This document shows, piece after piece, positions 815 to 60,812 of a stretch of DNA of 64,000 nt. Source of the stretch: a virus; IMG/VR virus record IMGVR_UViG_2858635475_000003, positions 1,400 through 65,399 of that record; one strand, given 5' to 3'. A program made the translations under genes and the position numbers. The notes beneath the pieces are model-generated. The model worked only from the letters and a program-made list of their open reading frames with translations, did not search any database and had not been told where the DNA came from. How positions within the stretch are numbered: the first letter of the stretch is position 1; every line of letters starts with the position of its first letter.

Positions 815-908
815 TAATCAAGAACTGGTTGATAAATGAGCGCTTACCGCGAGAAAGTCAACAAACAGTCCCGCAATCAACTAAATGGTTGTATTTACTA
901 GTTAATAC

Positions 909-2507
909 CTAAACTTTTAATCGAACTCTAACTGCATCCATAATCTCGTCCTGAGTGATACCTTTCGTCCGCAAGGTCTCATATTGCACCTCATCCATAG
1001 TGTTTTTAGCCATGATAACGTGAATGAAAACAGAAGGATGAGGTTGGCCGGGGCGGGCCAGTCGCCGATTGAACTGATCCCACAATTCGAGCGACCAGGT
1101 GAGCCCGTACCAGACCTGAATGAAGCCACCGTACTGCAGGTTCAGACCATGCGCCATTGACGCCGGATGCGAAACACCCATCTGGATCTTGCCGGCGTTC
1201 CACTTCTTGACGAAATTCGGTTCCTCATCGAAGAAAACCGCCTTCGGAAACTTTTTGCGGATCCGCTCTTTGTCGAACTTGAAGCTGTATGCCACCAACA
1301 TGTTCTGACCGGCCGACTCTTCGACGATGCTCTCAAGCTCTTTGATTTTCGCATCATGCACATGGATCGTCTCGCGCACGGGCGGGTGGACATCCTCATC
1401 GGTACGGTAGAGTGAGCCATTGGCGAATTGGAGCAGTTTGTTTGTCAGCACCCCGCGGGAGACCGCTTCCACGTCGTAGCTCTCGGCGACCAGCGTCTTC
1501 TCAAAATCGCGGTACTGCTTCATGTGCTTCGGCGCCAGCGTAACGAAGCGCGGATTGAAAATCTGCGGCGGCAGATCGATATAATCCTGAGAGCGCAGGC
1601 TGATCATCACGTCTTTCATCAGCCCCATGATCTTGTCCTTCGCTCCCTCCTTCGGCGTTATCTTTTTTGAGAACGGGTTCTTGTCGAAGAATTTGTTCTC
1701 GAAACGGGTCTTGTTGATGCCAAGGCGCTCTCCCTGGTCCATTAGGTACGCCTGCCCTCCAAGGTCATGAACTCCGTTCGGCGATGGCGTCCCGCTTAGC
1801 TCGATCACGCGCTCCATCTTTTTGCGGGCTTGCGCGAGCACACCGAACTCCGTCAGGTTCGGTTTGACGCGGATTTTCTCACCGGTCTTGGGGTCTTTCT
1901 TTTTGCTTGGCGTGCGGAAGGTAAACCCCTTCAGTCGACTGGATTCGTCATAGACAAGGATCTGCCAGCGCCAGCCGGCATCGCCGCCGATCGTTTCCCA
2001 CAGCCATTGCAGGTTCTCACGATTGATGATCGTCAGGTCGGCGTCGACGGCCAGAGCGGCAATTCGTTGAGCAGCATCACCGACGACCACGGTGTAGGTC
2101 ATGTCCTGCAGGTGCTCCCACTCGCCGACTTCCGTGGGCCAGGTTTCCTCAGCCACTTTCAGAGGCGCGACAACCAGGCACCGCCAGTTCGTGTTCTTGC
2201 GCAAAAGACGGCGCACGCCGGTCAGCGTTGCACCGGTCTTGCCCAAGCTCATCTCGGCCGCGCCAAGAAGGTATTCGCGCTGCTCGATCTCGTCGGCCAG
2301 ATACCGCTGGTACGATCGAAGCATGGACTCAGGACGCAAACCCGATATCGGCTTACCGATATCGGCAACTACTTCCAAAATGGAAGGGGTTTCGATCAGG
2401 CCAAACGAGCGAAGATAGAGGTCGAGGGCGGCAGTCGTCTCGAATTTCCGGACAACTGGTATCGCGACGAACGATTGCCTGTAGATTTCAAATGGCGTCT
2501 GGATCAT
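909..2507 (-). CDS. SNF2-family DNA helicase
   Basis: SNF2 motifs in order: LRSYQ (Q-motif/I), SLGKTGATL (Walker A-like), VYDESSRLK (DExH-like box), and the C-terminal helicase block QMGVSHPASMAHGLNLQ. Confidence 0.8.
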   Translation of the reverse strand: MIQTPFEIYRQSFVAIPVVRKFETTAALDLYLRSFGLIETPSILEVVADIGKPISGLRPESMLRSYQRYLADEIEQREYLLGAAEMSLGKTGATLTGVRRLLRKNTNWRCLVVAPLKVAEETWPTEVGEWEHLQDMTYTVVVGDAAQRIAALAVDADLTIINRENLQWLWETIGGDAGWRWQILVYDESSRLKGFTFRTPSKKKDPKTGEKIRVKPNLTEFGVLAQARKKMERVIELSGTPSPNGVHDLGGQAYLMDQGERLGINKTRFENKFFDKNPFSKKITPKEGAKDKIMGLMKDVMISLRSQDYIDLPPQIFNPRFVTLAPKHMKQYRDFEKTLVAESYDVEAVSRGVLTNKLLQFANGSLYRTDEDVHPPVRETIHVHDAKIKELESIVEESAGQNMLVAYSFKFDKERIRKKFPKAVFFDEEPNFVKKWNAGKIQMGVSHPASMAHGLNLQYGGFIQVWYGLTWSLELWDQFNRRLARPGQPHPSVFIHVIMAKNTMDEVQYETLRTKGITQDEIMDAVRVRLKV

Positions 2508-2778
2508 ATCGGTCCAACAGAACTTTGCCGAGAGCGGCGTTGCTCACGACGAAAACCAACATCCCGGCTCGAAGCATCCGGGCATGTTCACGGTCCTGCA
2601 TGAGGGTGGTGTCCGAATCTTCATCCTTGAACTCGATCCAGATTGTCGGTGCACCTTTCTTGGAGAATACCGCGTCAGGCGCACCTACTCGCCCGATCCA
2701 CTGCACTCGACGAACGAACCATCCTGTCGATTTTGCATAGGCGATCACAGGGTTTTGGACGTGTGGTATCTCAGCCAA
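2488..2778 (-). CDS. VRR-NUC domain nuclease
   Basis: About 96 aa. PD-(D/E)xK core (GAPDAVF...IWIEFKDE). The small VRR-NUC gene next to an SNF2 helicase is the standard phage arrangement. Confidence 0.7.
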   Translation of the reverse strand: MAEIPHVQNPVIAYAKSTGWFVRRVQWIGRVGAPDAVFSKKGAPTIWIEFKDEDSDTTLMQDREHARMLRAGMLVFVVSNAALGKVLLDRYDPDAI

Positions 2779-3202
2779 GCGTCTTCACCTTGACGCCGGC
2801 TTCCGAGAACATTTCCCGCGAGGCGATGATGTCTGCTTCCCATCCTCCCGCAGCGCTCAGAAGGCCGCTCCCGATAGCCACGCATTTGATGCCGGCTTGA
2901 ATTATGGTGCGGGTGCACGCAGCGCACGGTGGATGGGTCACATAGAGCGTGCATCCCTCCGTCTGAATGCCGGCACGCGCAGCGAAGGCCAGAACGTTAG
3001 CTTCCGCATGTGATGCAAACAGGTATTTTGTGGGTCGCTCGCGGCGTTCGTCGGTCTCGTGGACTCCGATCGGCGGACCGTTGAAGCCCGTGAGCCGAAC
3101 CTCACGATTAGGCCCGACAAGCACAGCACCGACCTGAGTGCTGTCCTTAGACTTCTTGGCCGCGTGCTCGGCAAACCCTAGCAAATATTCATCCCATTTC
3201 AT
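2771..3202 (-). CDS. dCMP deaminase (cytidine/deoxycytidylate deaminase family)
   Basis: Zinc-binding deaminase motifs HAEANV ... PCAACTRTI. ATG at 3202 (MKWDEYLL) is preceded by the dyad motif plus a GGAG Shine-Dalgarno. Confidence 0.8.
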   Translation of the reverse strand: MKWDEYLLGFAEHAAKKSKDSTQVGAVLVGPNREVRLTGFNGPPIGVHETDERRERPTKYLFASHAEANVLAFAARAGIQTEGCTLYVTHPPCAACTRTIIQAGIKCVAIGSGLLSAAGGWEADIIASREMFSEAGVKVKTLG

Positions 3203-3224
3203 TGTTAACTCCACAAATGGTTGA

Positions 3225-3911
3225 TTATCCGAGAATGTCAGAAAAATCTAACTGGCTTGCGAGTTGGCTCGCGACATAACCACCCCATTGTTTTGCGATC
3301 GCCTTTGCATGGCCTGGATGTAACTTGGATCTAGCCATTCTACGAACTTCCGGATCGCTTGTCGGAGCATGTCGATGGACACTCTCTCTCGCTGTTTTTC
3401 CATCCAAAGTGCCGGTTCGCGTGAGCTTCGGCAAACCGCCTTCTGTCCACCAGCATGTCGCCTTCTTCTCGTTATCGGGACCATTTTCATCGTCACCGAA
3501 CCACCACGGTTGCACGGTCTGACATGGTAATTTTTCAACACCGCTCATGATCTGCGCATATCGCAACATCACGGGGTTTTCGTAAGCCACGTAACGTACA
3601 GGACAGCGTTCTCTCAGGTCATATAGATCCCATGCCGCTTGCCCCATTTTCACCCAACGGTCGATGTTCAGACCGCCCCGTTTATCCATTCCGTTGAAAA
3701 GGTGTTTTGAACTGGAATTTGCCATGAAAGTGCATGTTGGATGGAAAATTGCTAAATCCCAACCGTCGAACATCACGTCCCACCAGTTGCCCTGATAGTG
3801 TGGTCCCGGCACCTGCGTAGGAGACAGATCGCAGGACATCGCATCATAACCTTCGGCTATGAAGGCATCTCGTAACGTTCCCGAATATTCACCGCCGATT
3901 AAAACTCGCAT
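3225..3911 (-). CDS. putative DNA (cytosine-5) methyltransferase-like protein with C-terminal DFSDILG tail
   Basis: Start inferred at the internal Met (MRVLIGGEYSG, resembling C5-MTase motif I). PTCTF resembles motif IV (PCQ-F) and YENPV resembles motif VI (ENV). Ends ...QLDFSDILG*. Confidence 0.5.
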   Translation of the reverse strand: MRVLIGGEYSGTLRDAFIAEGYDAMSCDLSPTQVPGPHYQGNWWDVMFDGWDLAIFHPTCTFMANSSSKHLFNGMDKRGGLNIDRWVKMGQAAWDLYDLRERCPVRYVAYENPVMLRYAQIMSGVEKLPCQTVQPWWFGDDENGPDNEKKATCWWTEGGLPKLTRTGTLDGKTARESVHRHAPTSDPEVRRMARSKLHPGHAKAIAKQWGGYVASQLASQLDFSDILG

Positions 3912-3921
3912 AACACCATAT

Positions 3922-6039
3922 TCAACAATTTGTTGATTTTGTAAACGACGAAAGATAGAGATCGAGCGCTGTTTCCCGCTTTCCCCATCCCATGTTCCTG
4001 AGAATTTCGTAGGCTTCTTCGATGTAGCGCTCATGATCCACGTCCGCGGGCACAAACAGATCGTCCGGCAATGTCATGATTGGCCGGCAGCCGTCTGACC
4101 TCGAAACCTTGGCTCGGTTGCCGGTCTTGGCGTGCGGCTTGCCGCGCATGATCGGAGCACCGTCCTTCGCCCAATAGAACCGAACCGTTTTGCCGAGATA
4201 TTGACCGTTCCAGTCGCCGCCGCCCTTGGCCTTGATGACACGGACAAACCCGCGCACGTCAGGGTAATTCCGGATGAAATCCTCGATCGGAATGCCGTCA
4301 ACCAGAAATGCCAGGATCGCATCTCCGCACACCGTCATGTTCGGGTTCTTTTTCATTTGCTCGAACGACGGGCTGTATTCGGGAGAATCCTTCATCAGGA
4401 ATTTGCGCAAACCCTCGAGCTCGATCCCGGCCAGGAGCGGGTCGTCTTCCTTCAGTTTGTTCCGCCAGTGGTTCGCAATGTACCCCTTGCGCTTGGCCTT
4501 ACCATCGGGCTTGATCGCCAGGTAGAAGTTGACATCGCGGTTATAGATCGCCTTGTATTCAGCACCTTCGAGGATGAAACTTGTCGTGTTTTCCCACCAC
4601 TCGATAAGTTCTTTGAGGAAGCCGCCTGCCGGCCGGTCGCCCTTCATCCCTTCGTAAAGACGACGCGGTATCTTCATGACCACGCCGTCAGTGTTCGCCG
4701 AGACGATCCGGATACCGGCAAGTTCTGCGCGCTCGATCAGCATCAACAATGTTAGCTGACCGGTCAGCGTCGTAGCAATCATCAGGTGTGGAGCAAACAG
4801 AACGCTGTAACGGCTCCCGAGCTTGCCATATGGACCGTTCAGACCAACCTTTCGGCCATCCGACCGAACCTTGAAGAATAGTTCTTTCTCGCGGTCGCCG
4901 GCATCACGAGCGTCGTTCGAACGCTTCTTGTCTGCCATGCGCTCGGCTTTAATGCCGCCGTAGACAGGCTGGAATTTTGGGCCGACCGCTTTCGGGTAAA
5001 GGCCGAGCTTCAGGATGATAGAAGGGTACTGAGAGCCTACGTCGAAGTCGACAAGCTGCCAGTCGTCATCCGACTCCTCGACGCGGCATTTTTCCTGCGA
5101 ATGCAATCCGCCGATACCGAGCTTGTAGGTGGACTGCCCGATCTCGATCTTGAACTTTTTGAATTCGTCGGGGAACGGCACAGAGCCTGTGTCGGTGACC
5201 TCGATATCGGTCTCTCGAATGACCTTCAAAACGTTCTGTAGCAGCGGCGTTTTGAACTCTATGAAGTCGGGAACCTGGTATCGAAACTTGTAGCCGCCCT
5301 TGAACTTGGCTTTCTGAACCTGCTTTTTGATAAGACGCTCGACGCCGATCTTGATCATGCGCTCGCCCGTTTGCGCGTCAGACAGAGAGCGGGCATCGAT
5401 CCCGTAGATTTCGCCGATCGACTCGCGAAGTTCGAGCGCCTGTTTGCAATGTGAGTAAAGATTTGCGGTCGCGGGGCAGTCCGAATTTCGGCAATAGTCG
5501 TTCAGTACGTCCATCTCGTCGTGGGTGAGATCGGCATCGGGGTCTACGGGCAGGTCTTGGAGGCGCTTCGCGTGCAAGCGACCTGCAAGCGTCTTGAGGC
5601 TCGCACTACCAGAGGCGAAAACGTTCTCCTGCTCGTCGTCATCATCGGCACCGGTTCCAACGGAAGGGTTAGTGTCGAAAAGATCGATGTGATCCACGTA
5701 GGACGGAACGACGATCCCAAACTCGCGCTCGCAGTCCCACGGTTTTTTCCGCTTTTTGATAATCCAGTCAGAGAGTGCCTTCAGGTCCGCATTGCTCGCA
5801 CCGTTGAGCGCGTACAGCAGAACCATCATGTCGTAGTCCCGGCTATTGAAGCCGACCACAGTATACTTCTTGAGAATGCGCCTCACGCGCAGCGGATCGA
5901 AATCAGCGCGCTCGCTACGCTCGTAACCGATCGACCGGCCGTCCTCGGTCAGGAATGCTACATAGAAGTAATTCCGGTAGCATTCCAAGTCGAAGAAGGC
6001 GATCGGCCGCTCAGTTTTTGTCCTGACTTCTCTGGCCAT
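3922..6039 (-). CDS. DNA polymerase, family B-like, with 3'-5' exonuclease domain
   Basis: Exo I FFDLE near the N-terminus. Motif A-like DVGSQYPSIIL (cf. DxxSLYPSII) and motif C-like SANTDGV (cf. YGDTDS), in the canonical order. Confidence 0.75.
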   Translation of the reverse strand: MAREVRTKTERPIAFFDLECYRNYFYVAFLTEDGRSIGYERSERADFDPLRVRRILKKYTVVGFNSRDYDMMVLLYALNGASNADLKALSDWIIKKRKKPWDCEREFGIVVPSYVDHIDLFDTNPSVGTGADDDDEQENVFASGSASLKTLAGRLHAKRLQDLPVDPDADLTHDEMDVLNDYCRNSDCPATANLYSHCKQALELRESIGEIYGIDARSLSDAQTGERMIKIGVERLIKKQVQKAKFKGGYKFRYQVPDFIEFKTPLLQNVLKVIRETDIEVTDTGSVPFPDEFKKFKIEIGQSTYKLGIGGLHSQEKCRVEESDDDWQLVDFDVGSQYPSIILKLGLYPKAVGPKFQPVYGGIKAERMADKKRSNDARDAGDREKELFFKVRSDGRKVGLNGPYGKLGSRYSVLFAPHLMIATTLTGQLTLLMLIERAELAGIRIVSANTDGVVMKIPRRLYEGMKGDRPAGGFLKELIEWWENTTSFILEGAEYKAIYNRDVNFYLAIKPDGKAKRKGYIANHWRNKLKEDDPLLAGIELEGLRKFLMKDSPEYSPSFEQMKKNPNMTVCGDAILAFLVDGIPIEDFIRNYPDVRGFVRVIKAKGGGDWNGQYLGKTVRFYWAKDGAPIMRGKPHAKTGNRAKVSRSDGCRPIMTLPDDLFVPADVDHERYIEEAYEILRNMGWGKRETALDLYLSSFTKSTNC

Positions 6040-6452: not shown

Positions 6453-6483
6453 AGGACCCCAAAATCAACAAATGGTGGATTTA

Positions 6484-7237: not shown

Positions 7238-8482
7238 TCAGTCGTCGAAATCTTCAAAATCCTCATCGAGATTTTCGAAGTCTGAGGTGACCAGAAGCGC
7301 TGGTCGCGCATCCTCGATCGAGACGATCGAAGGAGTTGGTTCGCCTCCGACGACAAAATCTCTTGGGAACTTCCCCTTCCCTACGATCTTGTCCAGCATT
7401 GCGGGCGTTTTCAACTTTTTGGTGATTATCTGGTCGTCCTTAAAGCCGTGCTTCTTGAGCCAGGCTTCCGACTGTTCTTCGTCAGCGTGCTTGCGGTTCG
7501 AGCGCCGGCCGGCGACGATCTTCAGCCCATACTTCTCACCATCACCGGTGCGCACGTCGGCAGCGACCGAAGCTTCCACGCGGGTGAGAAACTGCCGAGC
7601 GAGCGACAGGTGATCGTAGATCGCTTTCTTGCGGGCGGTCGTGAGACCTTCCACGTCAGGAAAGGTAATCTCGACGCCGAAGTCCTCGTACTCGTCAAGG
7701 TTCTCAAACTCGATACCAGCGAATTCGAGCGCCCAAGCTTCATATTCAGGACAGGCACCTTCCACCTTGGCGGCGGGGCACCAGGTGCACCCATCTTTCG
7801 AGGGAATGCATGGGGCGTTCGGATCGAACGTCAGCTTTGCACGTTCGCGGATCTCGGCAGCCTTCTTGCGAAGCTCGTCGATCGAGATCACCCACTCCCC
7901 GCCACCGCGACCATTTCTCGGCTGGTCAATGATGATTCGGACGCGCTTGATGTGGGGGTGGGTATCTTTGATCTGCTCCCACAGTGCATCGAAGTAGATG
8001 ATCTGTTGGGTGTTGCCGACTGCTTCGACAGGAATCCCCTTGCCGTATTTCAGGTCGGACTGAACCGCCTCGTCGCCCTGATCCGGAGCAGGAATGACCG
8101 CACAATCGAGCGTACCTTTCTGAGGTTCGCCGTGATCGTTCAGACCGGTAATGTGAGTGATGTCTACGCGACTTTCGATGATCATCTCACCGGGAAATTC
8201 GCGGATGCGGTCGATCCCCGGCTGCAGCGCATCGGCCATATCATCGTCACAGAGATAGATGACGCCGTTGACCTTCACCTCTGTTCCGACGAAATCGTGA
8301 GCATCGAGACCAACTGAGAGCGCCAGTTCTCGAATGAGGTGAGCGGCTGTGCCTTCATCGGCGGCAGGGTTGACCTTCCTGTCGTCCTTGTCGAGACCGA
8401 GCTTCTTGCACCGGTTCAGCGCACCGGGACATGTAGTCCATCTTTTCGCGTCGGAAGGCGCATTGCGAGCGTGTCCGGTCAT
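7238..8482 (-). CDS. Cas4/RecB-like PD-(D/E)xK exonuclease (DUF2800-type) with Fe-S cysteine cluster
   Basis: N-terminal Cys (TTCPGALNRC), nuclease core (D...DLKYGK) and C-terminal CTWCPAAKVEGAC: a 1+3 cysteine arrangement as in Cas4/AddB. Acidic C-terminus DEDFEDFDD*. Confidence 0.6.
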   Translation of the reverse strand: MTGHARNAPSDAKRWTTCPGALNRCKKLGLDKDDRKVNPAADEGTAAHLIRELALSVGLDAHDFVGTEVKVNGVIYLCDDDMADALQPGIDRIREFPGEMIIESRVDITHITGLNDHGEPQKGTLDCAVIPAPDQGDEAVQSDLKYGKGIPVEAVGNTQQIIYFDALWEQIKDTHPHIKRVRIIIDQPRNGRGGGEWVISIDELRKKAAEIRERAKLTFDPNAPCIPSKDGCTWCPAAKVEGACPEYEAWALEFAGIEFENLDEYEDFGVEITFPDVEGLTTARKKAIYDHLSLARQFLTRVEASVAADVRTGDGEKYGLKIVAGRRSNRKHADEEQSEAWLKKHGFKDDQIITKKLKTPAMLDKIVGKGKFPRDFVVGGEPTPSIVSIEDARPALLVTSDFENLDEDFEDFDD

Positions 8483-9030
8483 AGCACATGACCCTCGAAG
8501 GCTTTTCTCGCTTGAGCCGCCATTTCCTTCGTCGGAAAGTGCCCTAGACTACGAAATCTTCCTTTCTCATGACAGTATGCCTGCCACGGGTTCCTTCGAG
8601 TGGGTCTGTAACGAACTCCGAAAATTCCTGACGCAGCATTAGATTTATGGCGATTTCGGTTATTCTGAGAGCAGGTCAACCATCTGAGATTGGACAGACG
8701 ATTATCGTCCCTGACACCGTTCTTGTGGTCGGGAATGAGCGATGGGTCCTCTGGCGGTCCCAAAAACTGCAAAATCACTAAACGGTGGATTTTTCGGGTG
8801 TGCCTGATCCCATCTGCATCAAAAAGGTTAACCTGCAGGTAACCGTCTTTATCCGGAATGCCCTTCAAAATACGAACGGGTTTCACTCGTTTGTGAGACC
8901 CCTTCACGGCACTTTCAATATGCTGAACACGACCGAGGCTTCTGACACGGCCGAAATCACTGACTTGATACAGCCCTTCGTAACCAGAGATGTCTTTCCA
9001 GATTTCCTGCACAGTTTTTCCTCGGATCAT
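8479..9030 (-). CDS. HNH homing endonuclease (NUMOD4-HNH-AP2 architecture)
   Basis: From the internal Met: GYEGLYQVSDFGRVRSL (NUMOD4), DHKNGVRDDNRLSNLRWLTCSQNN (HNH), GVRYRP..WQAY...GHFPTKEMAA (AP2). Confidence 0.75.
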   Translation of the reverse strand: MIRGKTVQEIWKDISGYEGLYQVSDFGRVRSLGRVQHIESAVKGSHKRVKPVRILKGIPDKDGYLQVNLFDADGIRHTRKIHRLVILQFLGPPEDPSLIPDHKNGVRDDNRLSNLRWLTCSQNNRNRHKSNAASGIFGVRYRPTRRNPWQAYCHEKGRFRSLGHFPTKEMAAQARKAFEGHVL

Positions 9031-9750: not shown

Positions 9751-9830
9751 TATCAATTTCCACAAAAAGTTGATTATGTCAACAAGCGATTGACTTCAAA
9801 ATCAACAAAAAGTACCTTTTCGGAAATCAC

Positions 9831-10163
9831 ATGTTCGAACAGGAAACGGGAATGACAGCCGAAACCAAACAGAAACGACGGAATTCCGGACCCTGCGGTC
9901 CTCTTTACGACCTTCTCGTGCAGAAGCTGCCAGATTACCACATGATCTATGGCGGGCACATCCGCCTCGACATCTACAAGCTCTCCGAGGCAATCGGCGT
10001 GAGCCCGCAGCACATTTATCAGGTTCTGCCGAGCGGCGACAAACCGGCTGCGGCAAAGAACCTCTCTGTCCGTCTGGCACGCAAGCTCATCGAATGTTCC
10101 GAGGAACACAAGACCATCGAGCCTCTGACCCTGCTCGACCTGGAACCCTTTCTTCCGTCCTGA
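9831..10163 (+). CDS. small HTH protein (Cro-like candidate)
   Basis: Predicted HTH (LSEAIGVSPQHIYQVL). Transcribed divergently from the early operon. Two dyad motifs lie in the 80-bp divergent intergenic region. Confidence 0.45.
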   Translation: MFEQETGMTAETKQKRRNSGPCGPLYDLLVQKLPDYHMIYGGHIRLDIYKLSEAIGVSPQHIYQVLPSGDKPAAAKNLSVRLARKLIECSEEHKTIEPLTLLDLEPFLPS

Positions 10164-12747: not shown

Positions 12748-12812
12748 TCAACTGTTTGTTGATTATGTAAACTGCTTGGGGTATGGTCATCGCAGTCACA
12801 AAGGAGATTGCG

Positions 12813-17696: not shown

Positions 17697-17784
17697 CTCG
17701 AACCTCTTTCGGTCAGGCAGTGAGATAAGTAAGGCAGAAATCCCGTGAAGTCAACTGTTTGTGGATTTTGGTTTGTTGAAAAGT

Positions 17785-18293: not shown

Positions 18294-18500
18294 TCAAACG
18301 TAACGGTATGACGACAAGCCCGCGCTAACGCTATGTGAAGCTAACGCAATGAGGCCATCACATGTTACGTTCAGGTCGGTATGACAAGAATTGCATAAAC
18401 CCGTAACATGTGACGGTCTCGGTATGACAAGAAAGGTTTGCTTACCCACGGCGCATAAGTCCACAAACGGTTGACTATCTAACGCTATGACTGTATGAAA
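18294..18500. repeat. palindrome/direct-repeat cluster (CACATGTTACG..CGTAACATGTG inverted repeat; GGTATGACAAG x3; GCTAACGC x3)
   Basis: Read directly. Immediately upstream of the first plus-strand gene of the accessory cluster. Confidence 0.7.
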
Positions 18501-19083: not shown

Positions 19084-19163
19084 CCTGCCCCCATAATCAA
19101 CAAACAGTTGACTATTGCGTAACGCTGTGAGATAACAGACTCAACGAAACGGAGACGAGACAA

Positions 19164-19445: not shown

Positions 19446-19472
19446 AACTCAACCATTTGGGGATATATCACC

Positions 19473-19751: not shown

Positions 19752-19772
19752 CAATCAACCATTTGGGGATTA

Positions 19773-20565: not shown

Positions 20566-20686
20566 GTTGCTCACCTAAAATCGTCACTCAATAATCAACA
20601 AACGGTTGACTAATGCATAACACTGTGAGATAACCGGAACAACGAAACAAGAGCGCGCCGCGCTGCCACACTGAGGAGTCAAGGGA

Positions 20687-21352: not shown

Positions 21353-21384
21353 CCTATAAGTCAACTATTTGGGGATTTATCAAC

Positions 21385-22057: not shown

Positions 22058-22085
22058 ATAGTCAACCTTTTGTGGAGATGAAAAC

Positions 22086-25026: not shown

Positions 25027-25077
25027 ACAACTGTTTGTGGATTTTCGCATTGACTTTATCAACAAAATGTTGATTAT
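25027..25077 (+). promoter_or_regulatory. tandem pair of dyad motifs (CAACtgtttGTGGATttt ; ATCAACaaaatGTTGATtat) upstream of the BRCT gene
   Basis: Representative of the motif family found at more than 30 gene starts. Confidence 0.5.
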
Positions 25078-26467: not shown

Positions 26468-26488
26468 ATCAACAAAAGAGTGATTTCC

Positions 26489-26812
26489 ATGTCGAGACTG
26501 TGCCCGCACTGCCAGAGACCGCTCAATTCGAGCCTTCCGATGGAAGTGATCAACGAGCTAGATGCGCTCGAATTGCAGAGAAAGCAGCGTGCCGTGCTCG
26601 ATGCACTGGTCTCATCGTATCCGCGCTTTGTCACCGCAGCCGATCTGGAACAGTGGATGTGGGACGACGTGGGTGAGGCCATTCCAAAGAGTGATACTGC
26701 GATCTCATCGCATGTCTCGAAGCTGAGGAAAACGCTTCAGAAGCTCGGCTTTGGGATCGAGGCAAAACGGTTTGTCGGTTTGCGGCTGACCATAAAGTCA
26801 ACCAAGAGGTGA
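26489..26812 (+). CDS. zinc-ribbon + OmpR/PhoB-type winged-helix DNA-binding protein
   Basis: CPHCQRP zinc ribbon, then a trans_reg_C-like fold (RKQRAVLDALVSSYPRFVTAADLEQWMWDD...HVSKLRKTLQKLGFGIEAKRFVGLRL). Confidence 0.6.
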   Translation: MSRLCPHCQRPLNSSLPMEVINELDALELQRKQRAVLDALVSSYPRFVTAADLEQWMWDDVGEAIPKSDTAISSHVSKLRKTLQKLGFGIEAKRFVGLRLTIKSTKR

Positions 26813-27004: not shown

Positions 27005-27025
27005 ATCAACTAAAAGGTGATTTTC

Positions 27026-28466: not shown

Positions 28467-28519
28467 CTTGACAATATCCACAAATAGTTGATTATCGAAA
28501 TCGAAGGTAAGGAAGAAAC

Positions 28520-33091: not shown

Positions 33092-33122
33092 AAATCAACC
33101 ATTTGTAGAGAAAGCTCTGAAA

Positions 33123-34371: not shown

Positions 34372-34400
34372 AATCAACCATTTGTTGAAGGACAACCCTG

Positions 34401-36075: not shown

Positions 36076-36125
36076 GCAAATAATCAACATATAGTTGACT
36101 AACACCACAAAAAGGAGTCGGGCGA

Positions 36126-37956: not shown

Positions 37957-39555
37957 ATGACGACAATCACCCTGCACCCCGGCGATAACATTCTTTCAAT
38001 GAGAGGGATGGCGGAAAACAGCGTGCATAGCGTGGTGACAGACCCGCCGTATATGCTCACAAGCATCGTCAAGCGCTTTGGAAAAGAAGGTTCTGCGCCA
38101 GCCAAGACTTCTGGTAATGACGGTTCTTTTGCACGCCTTTCGGCTGGTTTCATGAACAAACAGTGGGACTCTCCAAGAGTGGAATTGCCGCCATTGAGTT
38201 CTGACTTCGGTCATTACATGGCAGGCTTGATTGACGGGGAAGGATGTTTTCATGTGCATCGGAAACTGGTAAACAACTGTGAGACCTACGACTGCCAATT
38301 TTCAATAACCCTCCGCTCTGATGACAAAGACATTCTCGTGGAGATGCAGCGCCAACTCGGCGGCATAGGCTCCTTGGCTCATCGGCCAGCGCGTGACAAC
38401 GCCAATAGCCAAGCGCGCTTCTGCATTAGCTCGAAAGCACATTGTCAGGTTCTACGGGCGGCTCTAAGCGTATTTCCATTGCGCGCAAAAAAGGCTCGTG
38501 ACTTTGAGATTTGGTGTCATGCACTTGATGCATGGGTCAATCACGAACCGAAATCCTCATGGGAAGACGTGTCTTTCTATCGTGACCAATTGATGATGGT
38601 GAAGCGTTTCGGAAGCCTCTATAAGCCCGAATTCCTTTTCCACTATCGTTGGGCCAAAGAAGCTTTCAGAGTTCTAAAACCAGGCGGCTGCATATTCGCC
38701 TTCTCCGGATCTCGCACTGGCCACTGGCAGGCAGCCGCCATGGAACTTGCAGGTTTTATCATGCATCCTATGCACGGTTGGTGTTTTGGATCTGGAATGC
38801 CGAAGCCTACCAATTTAAAAGGCGTTCCCGGTTACGAGGGGTGGGGTTATGGCACGCAAACACAGAAGCCTGCTCTGGAACCCATATACCTCGGTCAGAA
38901 GCCTTTCAGCGAAAAGACAGGTCCACTTAATGTTTTGAAGCACGGCGTGGGCGGTTTCAATCTTGAGGATTGTTCTGTCCCAAGTGCCAAGGGTGACCCC
39001 CGCCGACCCGCCAATCTGATCCTCGACGGCTCGCCGGAAGTGGTTGCGATGTTCCCTGACTCCAAAGGGCAGCAAGGCGCTGTGCGCGGCGATGAGCCTA
39101 GCGGTGTCACGAAGGATATCTACGGCAAGTTCAATGGCCGCGTTCCAGCGCCAGTCCGTGGTGACAGCGGTTCCGCAGCACGGTTCTTCCACCAGTTCGG
39201 ACCTGACGCCGACCCGCTGATCTATCACGGTAAAGCCGGCAAAACGGATCGCGCTGGCGGCAATCATCCCACGGTCAAGCCGATCGCCCTCATGAAGTAT
39301 CTCATCCGGCACATCACGCCACCTGGCGGCATTGTGCTCGACCCGTTCGCCGGCAGCGGCACCACAGGCGAAGCGGCGAAGCGTGAGGGCATGGACTGCA
39401 TTCTCATGGAAGCCGAGCCCGAATACATCGAATTTCTGGAAAAGCGGTTCGACATCGCAAAACCGGAGTTCGATTTCGACGACATCCTCGGCGAAGCTTT
39501 GCCGATCAAATCAACAAATAGTGGAGATACGTTTCATGACATTCTCGGTGCTTGA
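37957..39555 (+). CDS. beta-class (CcrM-type, DPPY) N6-adenine/N4-cytosine DNA methyltransferase with embedded LAGLIDADG domain and double DxxDILG tail
   Basis: Motif IV VVTDPPYML near the N-terminus and motif I LDPFAGSGTT near the C-terminus (beta order). Between them lies YMAGLIDGEGCF (LAGLIDADG). The C-terminus reads DFDDILGEALPIKSTNSGDTFHDILGA*. Confidence 0.8.
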   Translation: MTTITLHPGDNILSMRGMAENSVHSVVTDPPYMLTSIVKRFGKEGSAPAKTSGNDGSFARLSAGFMNKQWDSPRVELPPLSSDFGHYMAGLIDGEGCFHVHRKLVNNCETYDCQFSITLRSDDKDILVEMQRQLGGIGSLAHRPARDNANSQARFCISSKAHCQVLRAALSVFPLRAKKARDFEIWCHALDAWVNHEPKSSWEDVSFYRDQLMMVKRFGSLYKPEFLFHYRWAKEAFRVLKPGGCIFAFSGSRTGHWQAAAMELAGFIMHPMHGWCFGSGMPKPTNLKGVPGYEGWGYGTQTQKPALEPIYLGQKPFSEKTGPLNVLKHGVGGFNLEDCSVPSAKGDPRRPANLILDGSPEVVAMFPDSKGQQGAVRGDEPSGVTKDIYGKFNGRVPAPVRGDSGSAARFFHQFGPDADPLIYHGKAGKTDRAGGNHPTVKPIALMKYLIRHITPPGGIVLDPFAGSGTTGEAAKREGMDCILMEAEPEYIEFLEKRFDIAKPEFDFDDILGEALPIKSTNSGDTFHDILGA

Positions 39556-41543: not shown

Positions 41544-41573
41544 CCAAAAATCCCCAATTAGTTGATTTTGACG

Positions 41574-44201: not shown

Positions 44202-45421
44202 AGGGCCCGACCCTCACGGTAAGCCTCGACATACTTGTGAACGGCTCGGCGGCCGAAATAGAAAACGCCTGCGCCGGCAGCGGCCATCAGGAGCCACGGC
44301 AAGAACGGCTGGATCGTTTCGAAGATTGTTCGGACCTGCGTGACACCGTTGGAGATGTCTTCGAGACTGGCAGTACCATCTGTCACGCCGCCGAACAGGG
44401 CGCCGCCGAAAATGGTCATACCGATCTTCTTGAGCCACGAGGCTTCCTTGACGACCGGTTCTGCCTTCAGGTCTTTTTCGGTGGCGTTCTGGCGCGCTGG
44501 CGCCATCTCGCGCTTGGGTGCCTTCACCAATTGCGCAAGAAGCTCATCGGTGATCTCACCGGTCAGCGGCAGATTATTGTCGGCTTGGAACGCCAAGATG
44601 GCGTTGCGCGTGCGCCGTTCGTACTTGTTGTCGGACTCACCAACTTCGGGGTATCCTTTGTCCCACAGAAGATCCTGAACGCGCTCGATCAATTTGGTGT
44701 CTTGCGCGACCGGCTTGGGTTCAGGGACCGGCACATTAACAGGAACGGCAACAGCGTTGTTGGTTTCCGGCGACCAGGGGGTATCCTTGATAGAGCGCCA
44801 CTTGTTATGGGCCGCTGCCATCTTGATGTGATACCGATTTTTCTTGTAACCAGGGCCATTGTAGACACTGACGATCTTTTCGCAGTCCGCTGCAGTCGTC
44901 TTGCGTTTCAATGCAGCGAGCTTGCGGAGTTCGCCATCAATTTTCGCTGAAACCAGAAAATCCACCATAGCCTCAAGGTGGACTGCCTCATCTTCCATGA
45001 AGGCTCGAACCATACCTTGGACGGTTGAGAAACCAACCATTTCGTGGTTCTCGCCGAGGATTTGCCCTAATCCCCAAGAGGTTGATTTTAGCGCCGCAGT
45101 TTCGTTGATCGCCATCGCCTTTTTCAGGCGCGGGTAACTGTCAGCCGGGTAAGGTTTCTCGCCCCATTTTGCATAAGCAAGCCCCTGCTTGACAGCATCA
45201 TCTCGCTGCTTTCCTGTCAGGTTTCTGTAGAATACGTGGGGCTCGAAAAGGATCTTGGGACGCTTTTGCGCGTCGAAACCCGAGCCGCTTGTCTCGACAT
45301 CCATAAATGCGTGAAGTTCGTCCTCACCAACCCTGATCTTGTGGGCGATGCGCGGAATATCGATATCGGTTATGCGCTTGGCTGCGCCTTTGAAGTTGTT
45401 CCAAGCGGACGAGGTGGCCAC
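44198..45421 (-). CDS. peptidoglycan hydrolase (DUF3380-type muramidase-like) with PG-binding domain and C-terminal TM
   Basis: N-terminal muramidase-like domain; PG_binding_1-like block (RNAILAFQADNNLPLTGEITDELLAQL); C-terminal hydrophobic helix. GTG start with an AGGAG SD. Confidence 0.6.
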   Translation of the reverse strand: MATSSAWNNFKGAAKRITDIDIPRIAHKIRVGEDELHAFMDVETSGSGFDAQKRPKILFEPHVFYRNLTGKQRDDAVKQGLAYAKWGEKPYPADSYPRLKKAMAINETAALKSTSWGLGQILGENHEMVGFSTVQGMVRAFMEDEAVHLEAMVDFLVSAKIDGELRKLAALKRKTTAADCEKIVSVYNGPGYKKNRYHIKMAAAHNKWRSIKDTPWSPETNNAVAVPVNVPVPEPKPVAQDTKLIERVQDLLWDKGYPEVGESDNKYERRTRNAILAFQADNNLPLTGEITDELLAQLVKAPKREMAPARQNATEKDLKAEPVVKEASWLKKIGMTIFGGALFGGVTDGTASLEDISNGVTQVRTIFETIQPFLPWLLMAAAGAGVFYFGRRAVHKYVEAYREGRAL

Positions 45422-45474
45422 GGCAAACTCCTATGGTTTGCACATCAATACCACAATTTGTTGATTAATCCACT

Positions 45475-50234: not shown

Positions 50235-50285
50235 TGCGCAGCACCATGTCAACCATTTCAGGGTTAGTCAACAAACAGTTGATTG

Positions 50286-55316: not shown

Positions 55317-55609
55317 CAGCCCTTCCTTTTAAGCAACTCGCTTATGTCTTTGGTCGGTTTGGCGCTGGTCGATTCATCATCTCGGTCGTTCGATCCGTTC
55401 AGGTTCTCGATCAGTTCCTTCAGGGCTTCACCGGCCTTCTCGGCGTCTTTCTTTTTGCCGAACGCAGCCACGGCGGATGTCATGACTGCACTCAGGATCG
55501 TGGCGGTAGTTGCGTGATGGCGGTTGACGCGATCCACAACTAGTTGATTTTCTTCCCAAACCTTGCCGATTGTGTAGTGCTCGGCGTTTACGTGACCTGC
55601 TGCCAGCAA
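55316..55609 (-). CDS. tail assembly chaperone frameshift-extension-like ORF (gpT analogue)
   Basis: Frame stays open upstream across the end of the gpG-like gene in the -1 frame; no ATG; TTG annotated. Confidence 0.35.
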   Translation of the reverse strand: MLAAGHVNAEHYTIGKVWEENQLVVDRVNRHHATTATILSAVMTSAVAAFGKKKDAEKAGEALKELIENLNGSNDRDDESTSAKPTKDISELLKRKG

Positions 55610-56892: not shown

Positions 56893-56930
56893 TCCTTTGT
56901 TGCCAAATCGACAAACGGTTGATTTTTCTT

Positions 56931-59095: not shown

Positions 59096-59141
59096 TTCTC
59101 TGTTCCTTATCAGGGGTTAACTTATCCACAAACAGTTGACA

Positions 59142-59165: not shown

Positions 59166-59176
59166 TGTCAGTTCGG

Positions 59177-60271
59177 TTACGCCAGAACGCGAGCCTTGAG
59201 GGTGCGGTTCGGGTAGAGCGGGATCGGCAGCGGCGAAGACTGCGAGAGAACGAACTTCTCGCCGGGATCGTCGGTCTCGAACATCTTCTGGAAGATGTCG
59301 CTGTTCTGCAGGCCGGCTTCGATCGCCTTGGTGTCGTAGATCGCACCGTAGCAACGGACGCCGGTTGCGCCGGGAGCAATGAGCATGATGTCCTTTTCGT
59401 TGAAAAGGTCGATCTTGGTCTTGCCACCGGAACCGTTCGGGATATCGACCGTATCCTTGTACATCCAGACTTCGATGTTGTTCGAAAGCTGGCCGATACG
59501 GGTCATCGGCTGTTCGCGGATCTGGATGCCGCGATCGAAGGTCACGCTCTCGCCGCCACGGTAGCGGGTATCGAGCATATCCTTGATGCCGGCGTTGTTG
59601 CGGAAATAAGGGGCAACCTGTGCACCAACCAGCAGAATGGTCGGAGCGCCGCCGCGCAGAGCGCGAACCATGGTGTTCGCCCAAGCTTCCACATCGCCGA
59701 TGATGTCGGTGGCGGGATCGGACCAGAAGTCGTCGGTCTTCACGATCGTCTGACCGGGGTCGCGGCCGAAGTCGAGAAGGACGGACGGATTGGCGGCGCC
59801 CTGATCACGGTCGTAATCGACCTGAACCTTCGCGTCGATGAAGGCACGTGCCGCCATCCAGATTTCGCGAACGCGGATGGCACGCAGATGCCGTTCGACG
59901 ATCTCGGCCACGCGCATGTCGAAACGCTGTGCCAGTGTGGGACGCTGGCCGCCGTTGCGGAAAATTTCGGACGGCTTCAGGTTGCGCGCATCTTCCGGAC
60001 GAACGGCATTTTTCAGCTTGATGTACGGAGGTGCGAACGCACTGATCGATTCGCCGTGACGAATGTCGAGCGGCTTGCCCTGCTCGTAAGGCAGGACGAA
60101 CATCGCCATGAAGCGGTCGGCTTCAGGCAGATCGGCGAAGCGGATTTCGTCGTCTTCGGAGTAGAAGGTCTCACCGAAGTACGTGTCGAGAATCCACGAC
60201 GGCAACGCGTCCATGCGCGGGTCATTCCGCAGCATGAACAGATCGTTGGGGGTCCACAATTCAATAGCCAT
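59177..60271 (-). CDS. major capsid protein (lambda gpE family)
   Basis: Size (364 aa), position after the decoration and protease genes, and overall Phage_cap_E-like sequence. Confidence 0.75.
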   Translation of the reverse strand: MAIELWTPNDLFMLRNDPRMDALPSWILDTYFGETFYSEDDEIRFADLPEADRFMAMFVLPYEQGKPLDIRHGESISAFAPPYIKLKNAVRPEDARNLKPSEIFRNGGQRPTLAQRFDMRVAEIVERHLRAIRVREIWMAARAFIDAKVQVDYDRDQGAANPSVLLDFGRDPGQTIVKTDDFWSDPATDIIGDVEAWANTMVRALRGGAPTILLVGAQVAPYFRNNAGIKDMLDTRYRGGESVTFDRGIQIREQPMTRIGQLSNNIEVWMYKDTVDIPNGSGGKTKIDLFNEKDIMLIAPGATGVRCYGAIYDTKAIEAGLQNSDIFQKMFETDDPGEKFVLSQSSPLPIPLYPNRTLKARVLA

Positions 60272-60310
60272 GGTCTTGGTTCCTTTCTTTGGAGAGCGCT
60301 AGGCCACGGC

Positions 60311-60748
60311 TTATGGCTGTGCGACGATGGAGCCAGCGCGGACTTTGCGGACCACGATGGAGGATGGGGTCGGAGCGCCGCGGAAGGCTTCCAGCTTCTT
60401 CTCTTCGGTGTCGTAGGAAGCCGGCCATGCGATCATGTCCATGTTCACGCAGCCCTGACGGAGAACCGGCTGCCCCTGGATGGGAGACGCCGGCGTGGTG
60501 ATGGGGCGAAGCAGAATACCGATAGCCTGCGTCGTGCCGGAAACGGCAGGAACAAGGTTGCCCGAGCCGTCAAAACCGACCGGAACGTAGACGCCGGTAA
60601 TGGTCTGGCTTGCAGCAATGGTCATATCTTCGGTCACGACGGCCGGCGTCTCGCCGACGATCAGACCTTCAGCGACGGGATTGATGGAGTCGGTCCACTG
60701 GCGCGGAACACCGGCCATGTGGGCGTCATAGGGAGCATTGATTGCCAT
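60311..60748 (-). CDS. head decoration protein (gpD-like)
   Basis: 145 aa between the protease and MCP genes. Confidence 0.5.
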   Translation of the reverse strand: MAINAPYDAHMAGVPRQWTDSINPVAEGLIVGETPAVVTEDMTIAASQTITGVYVPVGFDGSGNLVPAVSGTTQAIGILLRPITTPASPIQGQPVLRQGCVNMDMIAWPASYDTEEKKLEAFRGAPTPSSIVVRKVRAGSIVAQP

Positions 60749-60812
60749 TTTCGGTGTCCTTTCACCAATTCGTTGGCCTCAAATCAACATTCAGTTGACT
60801 TTCGGCGCGAGA

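Follow-up and report, generated by a model that had tools for sequence, protein, structure and literature searches.

Dyads at the gene starts of an Agrobacterium prophage are most likely putative DNA operators of its own lambda/434-type regulator

Comparable described systems are the stoperators of mycobacteriophage L5 and the CIRs of phage phiC31 and, on the protein side, the 434 repressor, in which Gln28 contacts the adenine of ACAA. Here, we analyzed a window of 64,000 nucleotides (positions 1,400 to 65,399 of IMG/VR record IMGVR_UViG_2858635475_000003; coordinates below are those of the window) from an Agrobacterium prophage, in which an inverted repeat of 15–21 bp was present in ~40 copies and occupied the majority of the intergenic gaps. 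Sequence comparisons suggested that these dyads are most likely putative DNA operators of the phage's own lambda/434-type regulator and not RNA hairpins.

The repeat had the form TCAAC-N5-GTTGA (extended, AWAATCAAC-N5-GTTGATTWT). Sites were called with a 27-nt symmetric PWM at a threshold of at least 12 bits, and 39 occurrences were found in the window, compared with 0.4 expected under first-order Markov nulls. When at most one mismatch was allowed, TCAAC-N5-GTTGA had 29 matches, against 2.2 ± 1.4 in shuffles. The initial annotation had placed a dyad at at least 30 gene starts; all 32 of its instances were recovered at this threshold, and the scan added seven sites (3650, 7411, 8775, 9779, 41551, 45071, and 55533). 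It had allowed a spacer of 4–5 nt, of which the 5-nt form was confirmed and the 4-nt form was not, as ATCAAC-N4-GTTGAT had no match. About four further sites were located in the part of the prophage outside the window (L001), which brought the total to about 43 putative operators. Neither 10 kb of host flank nor 200 kb of Rhizobiaceae replicons contained the motif, so that host-type DNA, 210 kb in all, was free of sites.

Fully intergenic positions accounted for 29 of the 39 sites, although only 6.5% of the window was intergenic, and 26 of the 39 gaps of at least 20 bp held a site. About five sites in the window were truly intragenic. A weak and doubtful match fell within coding sequence at 3650..3664 (PWM 14.0), and dyads were found at 7411..7425 within the DUF2800 gene (the orthologous place was kept in Rhizobium phage RHph_X2_30), at 8775..8789 within an HNH homing-endonuclease ORF, and, on the minus strand, at 45071..45085 within ORF 44198-45421, an ORF split into two PHROGs families, and at 55533..55547 within ORF 55316-55609. 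The distance from the end of the core to the start codon was 3–77 nt and not 2–30 nt as first described, with 14 window sites at 3–15 nt, 12 at 18–49 nt, and 6 at 37–77 nt. The shared orientation of element and gene held in a precise sense: the 5′ arm, TCAAC in gene direction, was invariant in 51–53 of 53 sites, and the degenerate arm was the 3′ arm, which was the worse one in 36 sites compared with 6 for the 5′ arm (binomial p = 3e-6). This polarity persisted at sites 16–36 nt from the start with their own Shine-Dalgarno (SD) sequence (3′ arm worse in 13, 5′ arm in 1), and it argues against a purely symmetric dimer operator, which does not predict polarity.

Three classes of sites were distinguished. 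In class A, the 3′ arm was the -35 hexamer of early promoters. On the minus strand, the arm GTTGACT at 17751..17765 formed a -35-like hexamer facing gene 17139-17696; on the plus strand, the class comprised 18460..18474 (GTTGACT-N17-TATGAA; start at 18526, 51 nt away), the promoter-like 19097..19111 (TTGACT-N17-GATAAC, preceded by TG), and 20595..20609, which nearly duplicated the promoter region at 19097. A divergent control region between genes 9163-9690 (minus) and 9831-10163 (plus) contained O1 (9759..9773, minus strand; conserved in five phages) and O2 (9779..9793, plus strand), whose 3′ arm ATTGAC contained the -35 of a conserved TTGACT-N17-TACCTT promoter directed toward the PrimPol operon. 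The arrangement TTGACT-N17-TAnnnT with a dyad over the -35 was conserved in five phages. A half-site in the spacer of the TTGACT-N17-TACCTT promoter (9802..9816, plus strand) was lineage-specific and absent in X2_30, L011, and L014. In class B, the site sat between the -35 and the -10. The dyad at 25059..25073 (plus strand) followed TTGACT by 3 nt and preceded a -10 of GATTAT (16-nt spacer), and it was adjoined by a weak dyad at 25027..25041 (plus strand; PWM 14.4). The dyad at 28477..28491, between divergent genes, was of class B (TTGACA-16-GATTAT) for the GcrA-like gene at 28520 (plus) and SD-type for 28466 (minus). The best two sigma70-like matches in 20–40 kb were class B sites.

Class C sites were located within operons, in the gap that separates a stop codon from the following start, and their degenerate 3′ arm (GKKGA) was the SD. 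SD-type sites on the plus strand were located at 19449..19463 (GGGGAT; start at 19473, 9 nt away), 19755..19769 (GGGGAT; 19773, 3 nt), 21361..21375 (21385, 9 nt), 22062..22076 (GTGGAG; 22086, 9 nt), 26469..26483 (GAGTGAT; 5 nt before the wHTH gene start at 26489), 26798..26812 (GGTGAT; 26816, 3 nt, overlapping the upstream gene end), 27006..27020 (GGTGAT; 27026, 5 nt), and 39511..39525 (GTGGAG; 39536, 10 nt, within the 3′ end of the MTase gene). On the minus strand, 41551..41565 was SD-type (GGGGAT; start at 41543, 7 nt; PWM 31.9), and at 3210..3224 the 3′ arm GTGGAG supplied the SD for the dCMP-deaminase gene (start at 3202, 7 nt). Other dyads on the minus strand lay at 3922..3936 (overlapping the last DNA polymerase codons; gene 3225-3911 starts 10 nt further on; PWM 33.2), 6465..6479 (start at 6449, 15 nt; PWM 32.7), 45450..45464 (beginning at a tail gene stop codon; start at 45421, 28 nt), and 50268..50282 (start at 50234, 33 nt), a perfect dyad 3 nt past the tape-measure stop codon and flanked by extra TTGAC half-sites. 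On the plus strand, perfect dyads were found at 12748..12762 (beginning at the stop codon of PrimPol; ATG at 12783, 20 nt; PWM 32.2), 31008..31022 (start at 31054, 31 nt, SD separate; PWM 33.6), and 36084..36098 (start at 36125, 26 nt), and further dyads at 31440..31454, 33095..33109 (start at 33129, 19 nt), and 34374..34388 (thymidylate-synthase start at 34401, 12 nt). The dyad at 31440 was followed by ATG 31462 of a mere 14-codon ORF, and the next called gene ran from 31584.

Alternatively, each dyad might mark a unit of transcription initiation. It could be a promoter element, or it could be bound by an activator that recruits host RNA polymerase, for which the phage's own HTH regulator and the GcrA-like protein 28520-29137 are candidates. 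On this reading, a regulated promoter would stand before each of many genes, as is the case for the MotA boxes and the late promoters of T4. The element was polar, upstream of genes and almost exclusively intergenic, a subset clearly overlapped -35/-10 pairs, and TTGAC within 30 nt upstream was commoner than expected (10 of 52 sites vs. 1.2). In addition, late-operon sites on the minus strand bracketed units for abundant proteins at positions conserved in X2_30: 60784..60798, 35 nt before the decoration-protein start (60748); 59125..59139, abutting a 14-bp terminator-like hairpin 3′ of the major capsid gene; and 56908..56922, 24 nt before the major-tail-protein start (56883). However, 23 of 58 oriented sites in two phages (14 in the window) contained the SD and ended 3–15 nt short of the start codon, so that a transcription start would fall inside the dyad. 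The mini-promoter at every cistron suggested in the initial annotation was not borne out, since, within ±45 nt, no conserved element kept a constant distance, and real-looking promoters were overlapped by only a subset of sites. Sigma70-like matches showed no overall enrichment, and the classes differed in their position relative to the -35 and -10, as would be expected of a repressor more than of an activator. We consider it rather unlikely that the dyads are start units.

The proximity of the element to start codons, its gene orientation, and the 3′ arm doubling as SD would also suit an element of the mRNA that masks or exposes the SD, as had been proposed at the outset, either as a hairpin or as a single-stranded operator for a RegA-like translational regulator that binds RNA, and perfect dyads were predicted to form hairpins of 7–10 bp (-8 to -10 kcal/mol). 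Yet across 93 sites, all 93 arm changes were one-sided and none was compensatory. The pairs at the variable arm position were A:T (45), C:T (23), and A:G (20), never C:G, and pairing there was lower than expected under independence (47 vs. 57.6). SD-type sites (-3.5 to -5.7 kcal/mol; z +1.3 to -0.3) folded no better than shuffles, and half of the sites lay 20–77 nt from the start codon with a separate SD. Moreover, the dyad centre flipped orientation between close relatives at the same junction (TGTTT in the window, AAACG in L010), no Rfam family matched the element, and the motif followed a DNA-binding HTH family. The constraint acts at the DNA level, and an RNA operator is very improbable.

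The proposed binder is an XRE/434-type HTH regulator of 246 aa (59..799, minus strand; recognition helix S-R-E-A-V-R-K-W-F-A-G-E). Its N-terminal domain superposed on P22 c2, lambda cI, and 434 repressor, and its C-terminal domain had a PD-(D/E)XK-nuclease-like fold. A dyad at 818..832 (minus strand; PWM 22.1), 18 nt upstream of the regulator ATG, is a putative autoregulatory operator. Among 79 IMG/VR loci encoding relatives of the regulator, which were fetched through the protein alone, the top enriched dyad was CAAC-N5-GTTG, and 45 of the 79 carried an exact copy in the 260 bp preceding the regulator gene, at the same position as in the window (3.9 expected). In the pooled loci, TCAAC-N5-GTTGA occurred 62 times (0.98 expected) where the first recognition-helix residue was not Gln, and ACAAC-N5-GTTGT occurred 33 times (0.61 expected) where it was Gln, a pairing that mirrors the contact of Gln28 in 434 repressor. 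A T flanked 138 of 162 half-sites in the non-Gln group, and an A flanked 104 of 192 in the Gln group; by distinct helix variants, the split was 10/15 vs. 0/12 (Fisher p = 3.6e-4), of which shared ancestry may be a partial cause. The CAAC dyad was largely missing from loci with the helix E-T-V in place of E-A-V. This family co-occurrence, the position upstream of its own gene and the residue-base covariation favor the HTH protein that had been named as a candidate dimeric factor (59..814), and the protein-DNA link they suggest is correlative.

Binding by the second named candidate, the wHTH protein (26489-26812), is unlikely: RHph_X2_30 has the motif and no detectable homologue of this protein. 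The small HTH protein adjoining O1-O2 (9831..10163, plus strand; 110 aa) has an HTH visible in its sequence and a moderately conserved recognition helix, and it could be a second, Cro-like binder. Its link was weaker than that of the regulator: a homologue was found in 3 of the 79 dyad-bearing loci, compared with 31 for the adjacent PrimPol. No S24 autocleavage domain was found in the regulator, and shorter homologues occur in phages described as lytic; it may thus not be the lysogeny repressor and may instead regulate timing in general. Gene 17139-17696 and nine GAGATAAG repeats formed a separate, highly variable locus resembling a second control or origin region. This locus could be the seat of the real immunity function, which counts against assigning the dyads to the regulator at 59-799.

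In RHph_X2_30, the same motif occurred at 35 sites, 28 of them intergenic, at orthologous gene junctions where the DNA no longer aligned with the window. The regulators of phages sharing the motif were only 46% identical, and a conserved motif beside such divergent proteins could point to a host protein, most obviously IHF: ATCAAC-nnnTT-G matches WATCAANNNNTTR, and exact matches to the IHF consensus numbered 18 (1.4 expected), with 16 in dyads on the gene strand. Against this, the IHF consensus does not cover the invariant positions C5, G11, G14, and A15, the X2_30 sites were mostly TTCAAC and not ATCAAC, and distant family members retained the arms and lost the central TT. The covariation of the flanking base with a residue of the phage protein and the lack of sites in host-type DNA also speak against a host factor, which we regard as highly unlikely. 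DnaA, also suggested initially, is an improbable binder, as the consensus half-site differs at three of nine positions from the DnaA box, for which we assumed the textbook consensus.

The early region was highly mosaic between the window and its close relatives, and about 12 of about 30 homology-block ends were within 36 bp of a dyad centre, compared with about 1.3 expected at random positions. The repeats might accordingly be short homologies at gene borders for cassette swapping, as in the PeSL cassettes of T4-type phages, with protein binding secondary. The association is confounded, since block ends also occurred at dyad-free gene borders and dyads lie at gene borders anyway. Such a role would account neither for the symmetry of the dyad and its overlap with promoters nor for the site ahead of the regulator gene and the residue-base covariation, and we give it very little credence.

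We therefore favor as probable a DNA operator bound by the phage's own regulator in three contexts. The regulator would bind presumably as a dimer, each monomer reading one xCAAC half-site, with half-site centres 10 bp apart. At class A sites, where the GTTGAC(T) arm would itself be the -35 of sigma70-type early promoters, bound regulator would exclude RNA polymerase, and class B sites between TTGACA and GATTAT would again be in a repressing position. Promoter occlusion alone does not account for repressor sites ahead of late structural genes. Class C sites would fill the 20–40 bp from stop codon to next start; because this space is short, the 3′ arm would have to double as SD and would therefore drift to GKKGA(T), with the 5′ arm staying TCAAC. 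Bound regulator there might be a roadblock for elongating polymerase or a silencer of internal initiation, and the site upstream of the regulator gene would provide autoregulation. The comparisons establish the site statistics, the constraint at the DNA level and the genomic association with the regulator, from which we infer dimeric binding, repression and, least securely, roadblocking at class C sites.

In Nazgul-like (Casjensviridae-type) siphoviruses, the regulator-operator pair appears, from these comparisons, to be a conserved component of the replication/control module, and the dyad network is apparently undescribed for this phage family. If the proposal is correct, it would constitute a genome-wide control network combining repression and roadblocking. 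It would fall into the known kind represented by the CIRs of phiC31, and it can be likened to the stoperators of mycobacteriophage L5, especially in the roadblocking or silencing proposed for class C.

The inverted repeat TCAAC-N5-GTTGA (hereafter the dyad) was found 29 times in the window when at most one mismatch was allowed, compared with 2.2 occurrences expected. An iterated symmetric position weight matrix of 27 nt with a threshold of at least 12 bits detected 39 sites in the window, compared with 0.4 in Markov nulls, and the whole prophage contained ~43 dyads. All 32 sites listed in the initial annotation were recovered by this matrix. The spacer of four or five nucleotides proposed there was narrowed to N5, since the N4 version had no match. 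Twenty-nine of the 39 sites were fully intergenic, although intergenic DNA accounted for only 6.5% of the window, and of the 39 gaps measuring 20 bp or more, 26 contained a site. The same dyad ranked first in the window and in its relatives, and its occurrence is a solid observation. Scans of 10 kb of adjoining host DNA and of 200 kb from the S. meliloti pSymA/pSymB and A. fabrum pAt replicons detected no site. This indicated that the dyad is not a Shine-Dalgarno (SD) or promoter habit of the host, and the possibility that the motif was an SD context of the host genus, or equally common in random host DNA, was thus discarded.

The window represented most of a ~69-kb prophage within the 2.97-Mb chromosome CP169641.1, integrated at the 3′ end of a tRNA-Met gene. 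The NCBI name of the regulator protein encoded at 59–799 (minus strand) carried the label Agrobacterium radiobacter. Both ends of the prophage were located (window 1–60, and 500–1000 of locus L001, which covers a part beyond the window), with attL at the 3′ end of the tRNA-Met gene and the core ...TCCGGGCCCACCA. Next to each of the two att sites were repeated TTGGAATCC/GTTGGAAA-type motifs, probably arm-type sites of the integrase. The prophage was that of a siphovirus with lambda-like head genes, T1-like tail genes, a replication module comprising DUF2800, PolA, Enc34-type SSB, SNF2 helicase and PrimPol, and an extended run of small early genes.

The sole close isolate was Rhizobium phage RHph_X2_30 (Casjensviridae; hereafter X2_30). 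Its portal protein was 70% identical, and despite this relatedness its DNA was essentially unalignable with the window. X2_30, whose genome was 93% coding, contained 35 sites, and 28 of these were intergenic. The two phages shared the dyad at the junctions before the major tail protein, decoration protein, gpW and dCMP deaminase genes, and at those after the capsid and PrimPol genes. The ends of homology blocks fell near dyads, which suggested a role of the dyads in recombination junctions; however, the mosaic-breakpoint analysis is confounded by gene borders. The motif was also present in IMG/VR relatives down to ~53% PrimPol identity. An exact-pattern scan of IMG/VR returned mostly random single matches, the motif-rich ones being pieces of the same few close relatives only, and a PrimPol-based search of genome contigs yielded only distant relatives, all without the motif.

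Several accessory genes were observed, encoding an RtcB-like RNA ligase (12783–14219), an O-acyltransferase (15860–16972), a HerA/DUF853 ATPase (22552–23841) and an SPFH/Band-7 protein (31584–32447). The O-acyltransferase gene, on the opposite strand, is likely a lysogenic-conversion gene. The HerA/DUF853 gene included a 270-nt stretch with 82% DNA identity to X2_30, the only aligning stretch between 20000 and 32000 of the window. A LAGLIDADG homing-endonuclease domain was found in the N-terminal part of the N6/N4 DNA methyltransferase gene (37957–39555, plus strand). An HNH/NUMOD4 homing-endonuclease ORF (8479–9141, minus strand), which contained a dyad, separated the DUF2800 gene from the gene that follows and was missing from the corresponding place in X2_30.

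The anatomy of the dyad was analyzed in 53 sites of the window and X2_30, oriented by the downstream gene. The 5′ arm was near-invariant (T53, C53, A51, A51, C52), and the 3′ arm was more variable (G51, T38/G13, T28/G22, G52, A49). The centre showed a preference for nnnTT, and the flanks were A/T-rich. The degenerate arm was the 3′ one in 36 sites and the 5′ one in 6 (p = 3e-6); the polarity thus tracked the direction of transcription. This bias persisted in sites 16–36 nt from the start codon that had a separate SD (13 vs. 1) and was gone at distances of at least 37 nt. Binding of IHF at the dyads would account for the centre preference in this clade, and 16 of the 39 dyads matched the consensus WATCAANNNNTTR exactly. 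However, the invariant positions lie outside that consensus, the flank in X2_30 is unaccounted for, and distant relatives lose the TT of the centre.

The relation between dyad and start codon differed with distance. Where the dyad ended 3–15 nt before the start, the 3′ arm (GGGGAT, GTGGAG or GGTGAT) was itself the SD, and the upstream stop codon often overlapped the A-rich 5′ flank, so that the element made up the entire intergenic spacer. At 18–49 nt, a separate AGGA-type SD was found downstream of the site. The sites at 37–77 nt were those in which the 3′ arm, GTTGAC(T), formed the -35 of a sigma70-like promoter (class A). Downstream of the dyad at 31440–31454, an ATG at SD distance opened an ORF of merely 14 codons (31462–31504), which could be a remnant or encode a leader peptide upstream of the gene at 31584.

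Overlap with -35/-10 elements was restricted to six class A sites and two class B sites, in which the dyad lay between the -35 and the -10. The clearest class A promoter was upstream of 9831, where TTGACT-N17-TA(C/G)nnT was kept in four of five phages, with a poorer -10 in one. The spacer of this promoter was variable, and one dyad lay over the -35 with a second 20 bp upstream. The class B sites at 25059 and 28477 were placed between TTGACA/T and GATTAT, the best sigma70-like matches in their 20-kb segment. A generic sigma70 scan showed no enrichment compared with shuffles. No position was conserved within 45 nt on either side of the ~21-bp element, and no -35 or -10 stood at a fixed distance from it, which argued against a mini-promoter at every cistron, as had been suggested at first. 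A reading of the dyads as promoter or activator elements keeps some weight, given their polarity and their placement around genes for abundant proteins, but it does not hold for 23 of 58 oriented sites, which ended 3–15 nt before a start codon.

One of the two class B dyad promoters belonged to the gene of a GcrA-like protein (28520–29137, plus strand) with an extra N-terminal resolvase-type HTH, and X2_30 also had an annotated GcrA-like gene. The CcrM/GcrA site GANTC was considered as the identity of the element and rejected; the element has ANTC...GANT and almost never the full GANTC. A strong terminator-like hairpin with a 14-bp stem (59137–59170, minus strand) was observed directly after the major capsid gene, and its 3′ side overlapped the 5′ arm of a dyad.

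The nature of the constraint was analyzed in 93 sites pooled from five phages. Across the five arm pairs, 93 one-sided changes and no two-sided change were counted. The most variable arm pair was A:T in 45 sites, C:T in 23, A:G in 20 and never C:G, and it was paired in 47 cases compared with 57.6 expected under independence. SD-type sites folded no better than shuffles (z from +1.3 to -0.3), and perfect palindromes alone gave modest hairpins, as any palindrome would. Rfam held no match to the element. Given zero compensatory changes, folding at the level of shuffles and no Rfam family, the earlier proposal of an RNA hairpin or translational operator was not sustained. At one junction, the centre was inverted between close relatives while the arms were unchanged. 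These results on covariation, folding, the inverted centre and Rfam indicated that the constraint acts on duplex DNA, in the form of two half-sites, at least one of which has to match the consensus.

Three recognizable DNA-binding proteins were encoded in the window, in addition to a small HTH protein (gp9831; 9831–10163, plus strand) visible in the sequence only. The initial annotation had named the winged-HTH protein at 26489–26812 and host DnaA among the candidate binders of the dyad. The former had no detectable homologue in X2_30; for the latter, only a few TCCAC variants resembled TTATCCACA and the consensus half-site had three mismatches. As the main binder, gp9831 was likewise rejected: its recognition helix was variable to moderately conserved, and it was detectable in three of the 79 dyad-bearing related loci, compared with 31 for the adjacent PrimPol.

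The regulator at 59–799 contained an HTH_3 / lambda-repressor-like DNA-binding domain. Its structure model (pLDDT 83) had two domains. The modelled N-terminal domain superposed on P22 c2, TP901-1 CI, lambda cI and 434 repressor, and the C-terminal domain was predicted to adopt a PD-(D/E)XK-like (nuclease) fold. A search of Pfam gave no match to the S24 peptidase domain in this protein. A CI/LexA-type repressor cleavable in the SOS response was therefore rejected, on the lack of S24 and the PD-(D/E)XK-like C-terminal domain.

Seventy-nine IMG/VR loci were fetched by alignment of the 59–799 protein, a selection independent of the motif, and CAAC-N5-GTTG was the most enriched dyad among them. In loci whose first recognition-helix residue was not Gln, TCAAC-N5-GTTGA occurred 62 times (0.98 expected), whereas in loci with Gln at this position, ACAAC-N5-GTTGT occurred 33 times (0.61 expected). 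The flanking base was T in 138 of 162 half-sites of the non-Gln group and A in 104 of 192 of the Gln group; counted per distinct helix variant, the split was 10 of 15 vs. 0 of 12 (p = 3.6e-4). This covariation may partly reflect shared ancestry of the Gln group. In 45 of the 79 loci, compared with 3.9 expected, an exact dyad was present in the 260 bp that precede the regulator gene, and the corresponding site in the window was at 818–832. Burkholderia phage AH2 encoded a 'repressor' (gp70) with Gln at the same helix position and had approximately eight ACAAC-type dyads. In the 434 repressor, the A of the ACAA half-site is read by a Gln that begins the recognition helix. The top-ranking dyad of the 79 loci, the split between Gln and flanking base, the dyads upstream of regulator genes, phage AH2 and the 434 precedent together pointed to the 59–799 protein as the probable, predicted binder. 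Loci in which the helix reads E-T-V rather than E-A-V (e.g., L164, L191, L169, and L170) were mostly without the CAAC dyad; when they were pooled, TCACG-N5-CGTGA was found seven times compared with 0.42 expected, which may represent a shifted operator specificity.

A mechanism can be proposed for each placement. Dimers bound to class A and B sites would lie over the -35 or the spacer and repress initiation, and the site before the regulator's own gene would lead to autoregulation. For the operon-internal majority, which lie between a stop codon and the next start with the 3′ arm as SD (class C), the action may be modelled on that of the L5 repressor, the closest precedent. Gaps of 20–40 bp have to hold an operator of 15–21 bp and an SD, and the proximal half-site would be pushed to K-variants that keep G..GA; the SD overlap would thus result from lack of space, although the polarity of the dyad persisted where space was not limiting.

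Here, we tentatively speculated that a dimeric 434-type regulator, with a degenerate restriction-endonuclease fold for oligomerization, blocks initiation and elongation on ~40 dyads throughout the prophage. If so, it would be the first system of stoperator type outside the actinobacteriophages, and one of different construction. The promoter-distal half of every site would be fixed, and the proximal half would also belong to the ribosome-binding site of the gene that follows. The regulator-site pair would form a conserved core circuit in Nazgul-like/Casjensviridae phages infecting alpha-, beta-, and gammaproteobacteria, and its operator specificity would be readable from one helix residue. We regard this full proposal as possible but rather doubtful. 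In a more remote variant, the nuclease-like domain would be active and the polar sites would serve for nicking.

A separate variable locus comprised the gene at 17139–17696 and nine GAGATAAG repeats. These nine copies, all perfect and in both orientations, were found within ~400 bp (17700–18130) and nowhere else in the window. They lay in a ~760-bp non-coding region (17697–18459) between two outward-facing dyad promoters and were arranged partly as a 59-nt inverted repeat; this could represent an origin of the iteron type or another operator system. The sequence TGAGATAAC formed the -10 region of two near-identical early promoters (19129–19136 and 20627–20634). Further short direct repeats, three copies each of TCGGTATGACAAGAA and CTAACGCTATG, were observed in the same non-coding region (18303–18433 and 18325–18489). 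The adjacent gene (17139–17696) apparently consisted of two tandem repeats, as judged by eye, and was poorly conserved among relatives. Together with the GAGATAAG repeats, it may be the real immunity or origin region. Shorter homologues of the regulator were found in phages described as lytic, and the pair of regulator and site was conserved among phages with differing immunity regions. Considering also this variable locus, the absence of S24 and the polarity where space is not limiting, the regulator, instead of being the actual lysogeny repressor, may be a conserved one with a global or timing role.

Literature searches on the motif, RHph_X2_30 and the assembly accession, together with the AH2 genome paper, provided no earlier description of the motif or of a regulator-site pair for Nazgul-like/Casjensviridae phages. 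Dispersed repressor sites are already known in L5, phiC31, and P1, and the present motif in Nazgul-like/Casjensviridae phages is apparently undescribed. If the proposed function is true, genome-wide operator and roadblock control, hitherto detailed only for relatives of mycobacteriophage L5, arose independently in proteobacterial siphoviruses. The results offer a candidate regulator-site pair for a widespread, little-studied phage family that includes the AH2, AchV4, DSS3-P1, and RcPescado types. The covariation of one residue with one base gives a handle to predict or re-engineer immunity or regulatory specificity, and the fusion of an operator half-site with an SD provides a single sequence with two readers. 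The motif is also a useful marker to detect and delimit prophages of this family.

Like the operators of 434, P22 c2, and lambda CI/Cro, the sites are dyad-symmetric, with half-sites one helical turn (~10 bp) apart, and lie upstream of the regulator's own gene; as in 434, A at position 1 of the half-site (ACAA) accompanies Gln as the first recognition-helix residue. However, the spacing is xCAA-N7-TTGx here and ACAA-N6-TTGT in 434, and those phages have six operators in two clusters, whereas ~40 are spread here over all modules, with a regulator that lacks S24. For the phiC31 CIRs and the P1 C1 operators, one repressor has ~17–20 highly conserved sites scattered in intergenic regions, which in phiC31 are inverted repeats; they differ in protein family, host and sequence and in their lower copy number, and to our knowledge no SD overlap has been reported for them. 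The SAS/ESAS of Cluster K mycobacteriophages are conserved motifs that include the ribosome-binding site a few nucleotides upstream of many start codons. The SAS is tightly bound to the start, whereas the dyads lie 3–77 nt away and their SD overlap is apparently a by-product of short gaps. In the T1-like phages T1 and Stevie, a 22-bp repeat of unknown function occurs in 16–20 copies, mostly intergenic and oriented with transcription, and has been likened to stoperators (PMC4319613). That repeat is asymmetric, differs in sequence, belongs to lytic phages and has no proposed binder. The repressors of Cluster A mycobacteriophages (L5 gp71, TipsytheTRex) bind >20 transcription-oriented sites in promoters and short intergenic spaces and stop elongation (PMC9283540). 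Both L5 and the present prophage are temperate siphoviruses with >20 genome-wide copies of one site (39 in the window, ~43 in the prophage), some in promoters and most in short intergenic spaces, with an orientation that follows transcription. In L5, asymmetric 13-mers are recognized by a monomer that has an HTH and a 'stoperator' domain, whereas the site here is a 15-bp dyad, and its predicted regulator, in an alphaproteobacterial host, combines an HTH of XRE/434 type with a C-terminal domain of nuclease fold and has no homology to gp71. Judged by sequence, and with a block of elongation that is putative here, the dyads carry the hallmarks of a stoperator network, except for the symmetry of the site and the unrelated protein.
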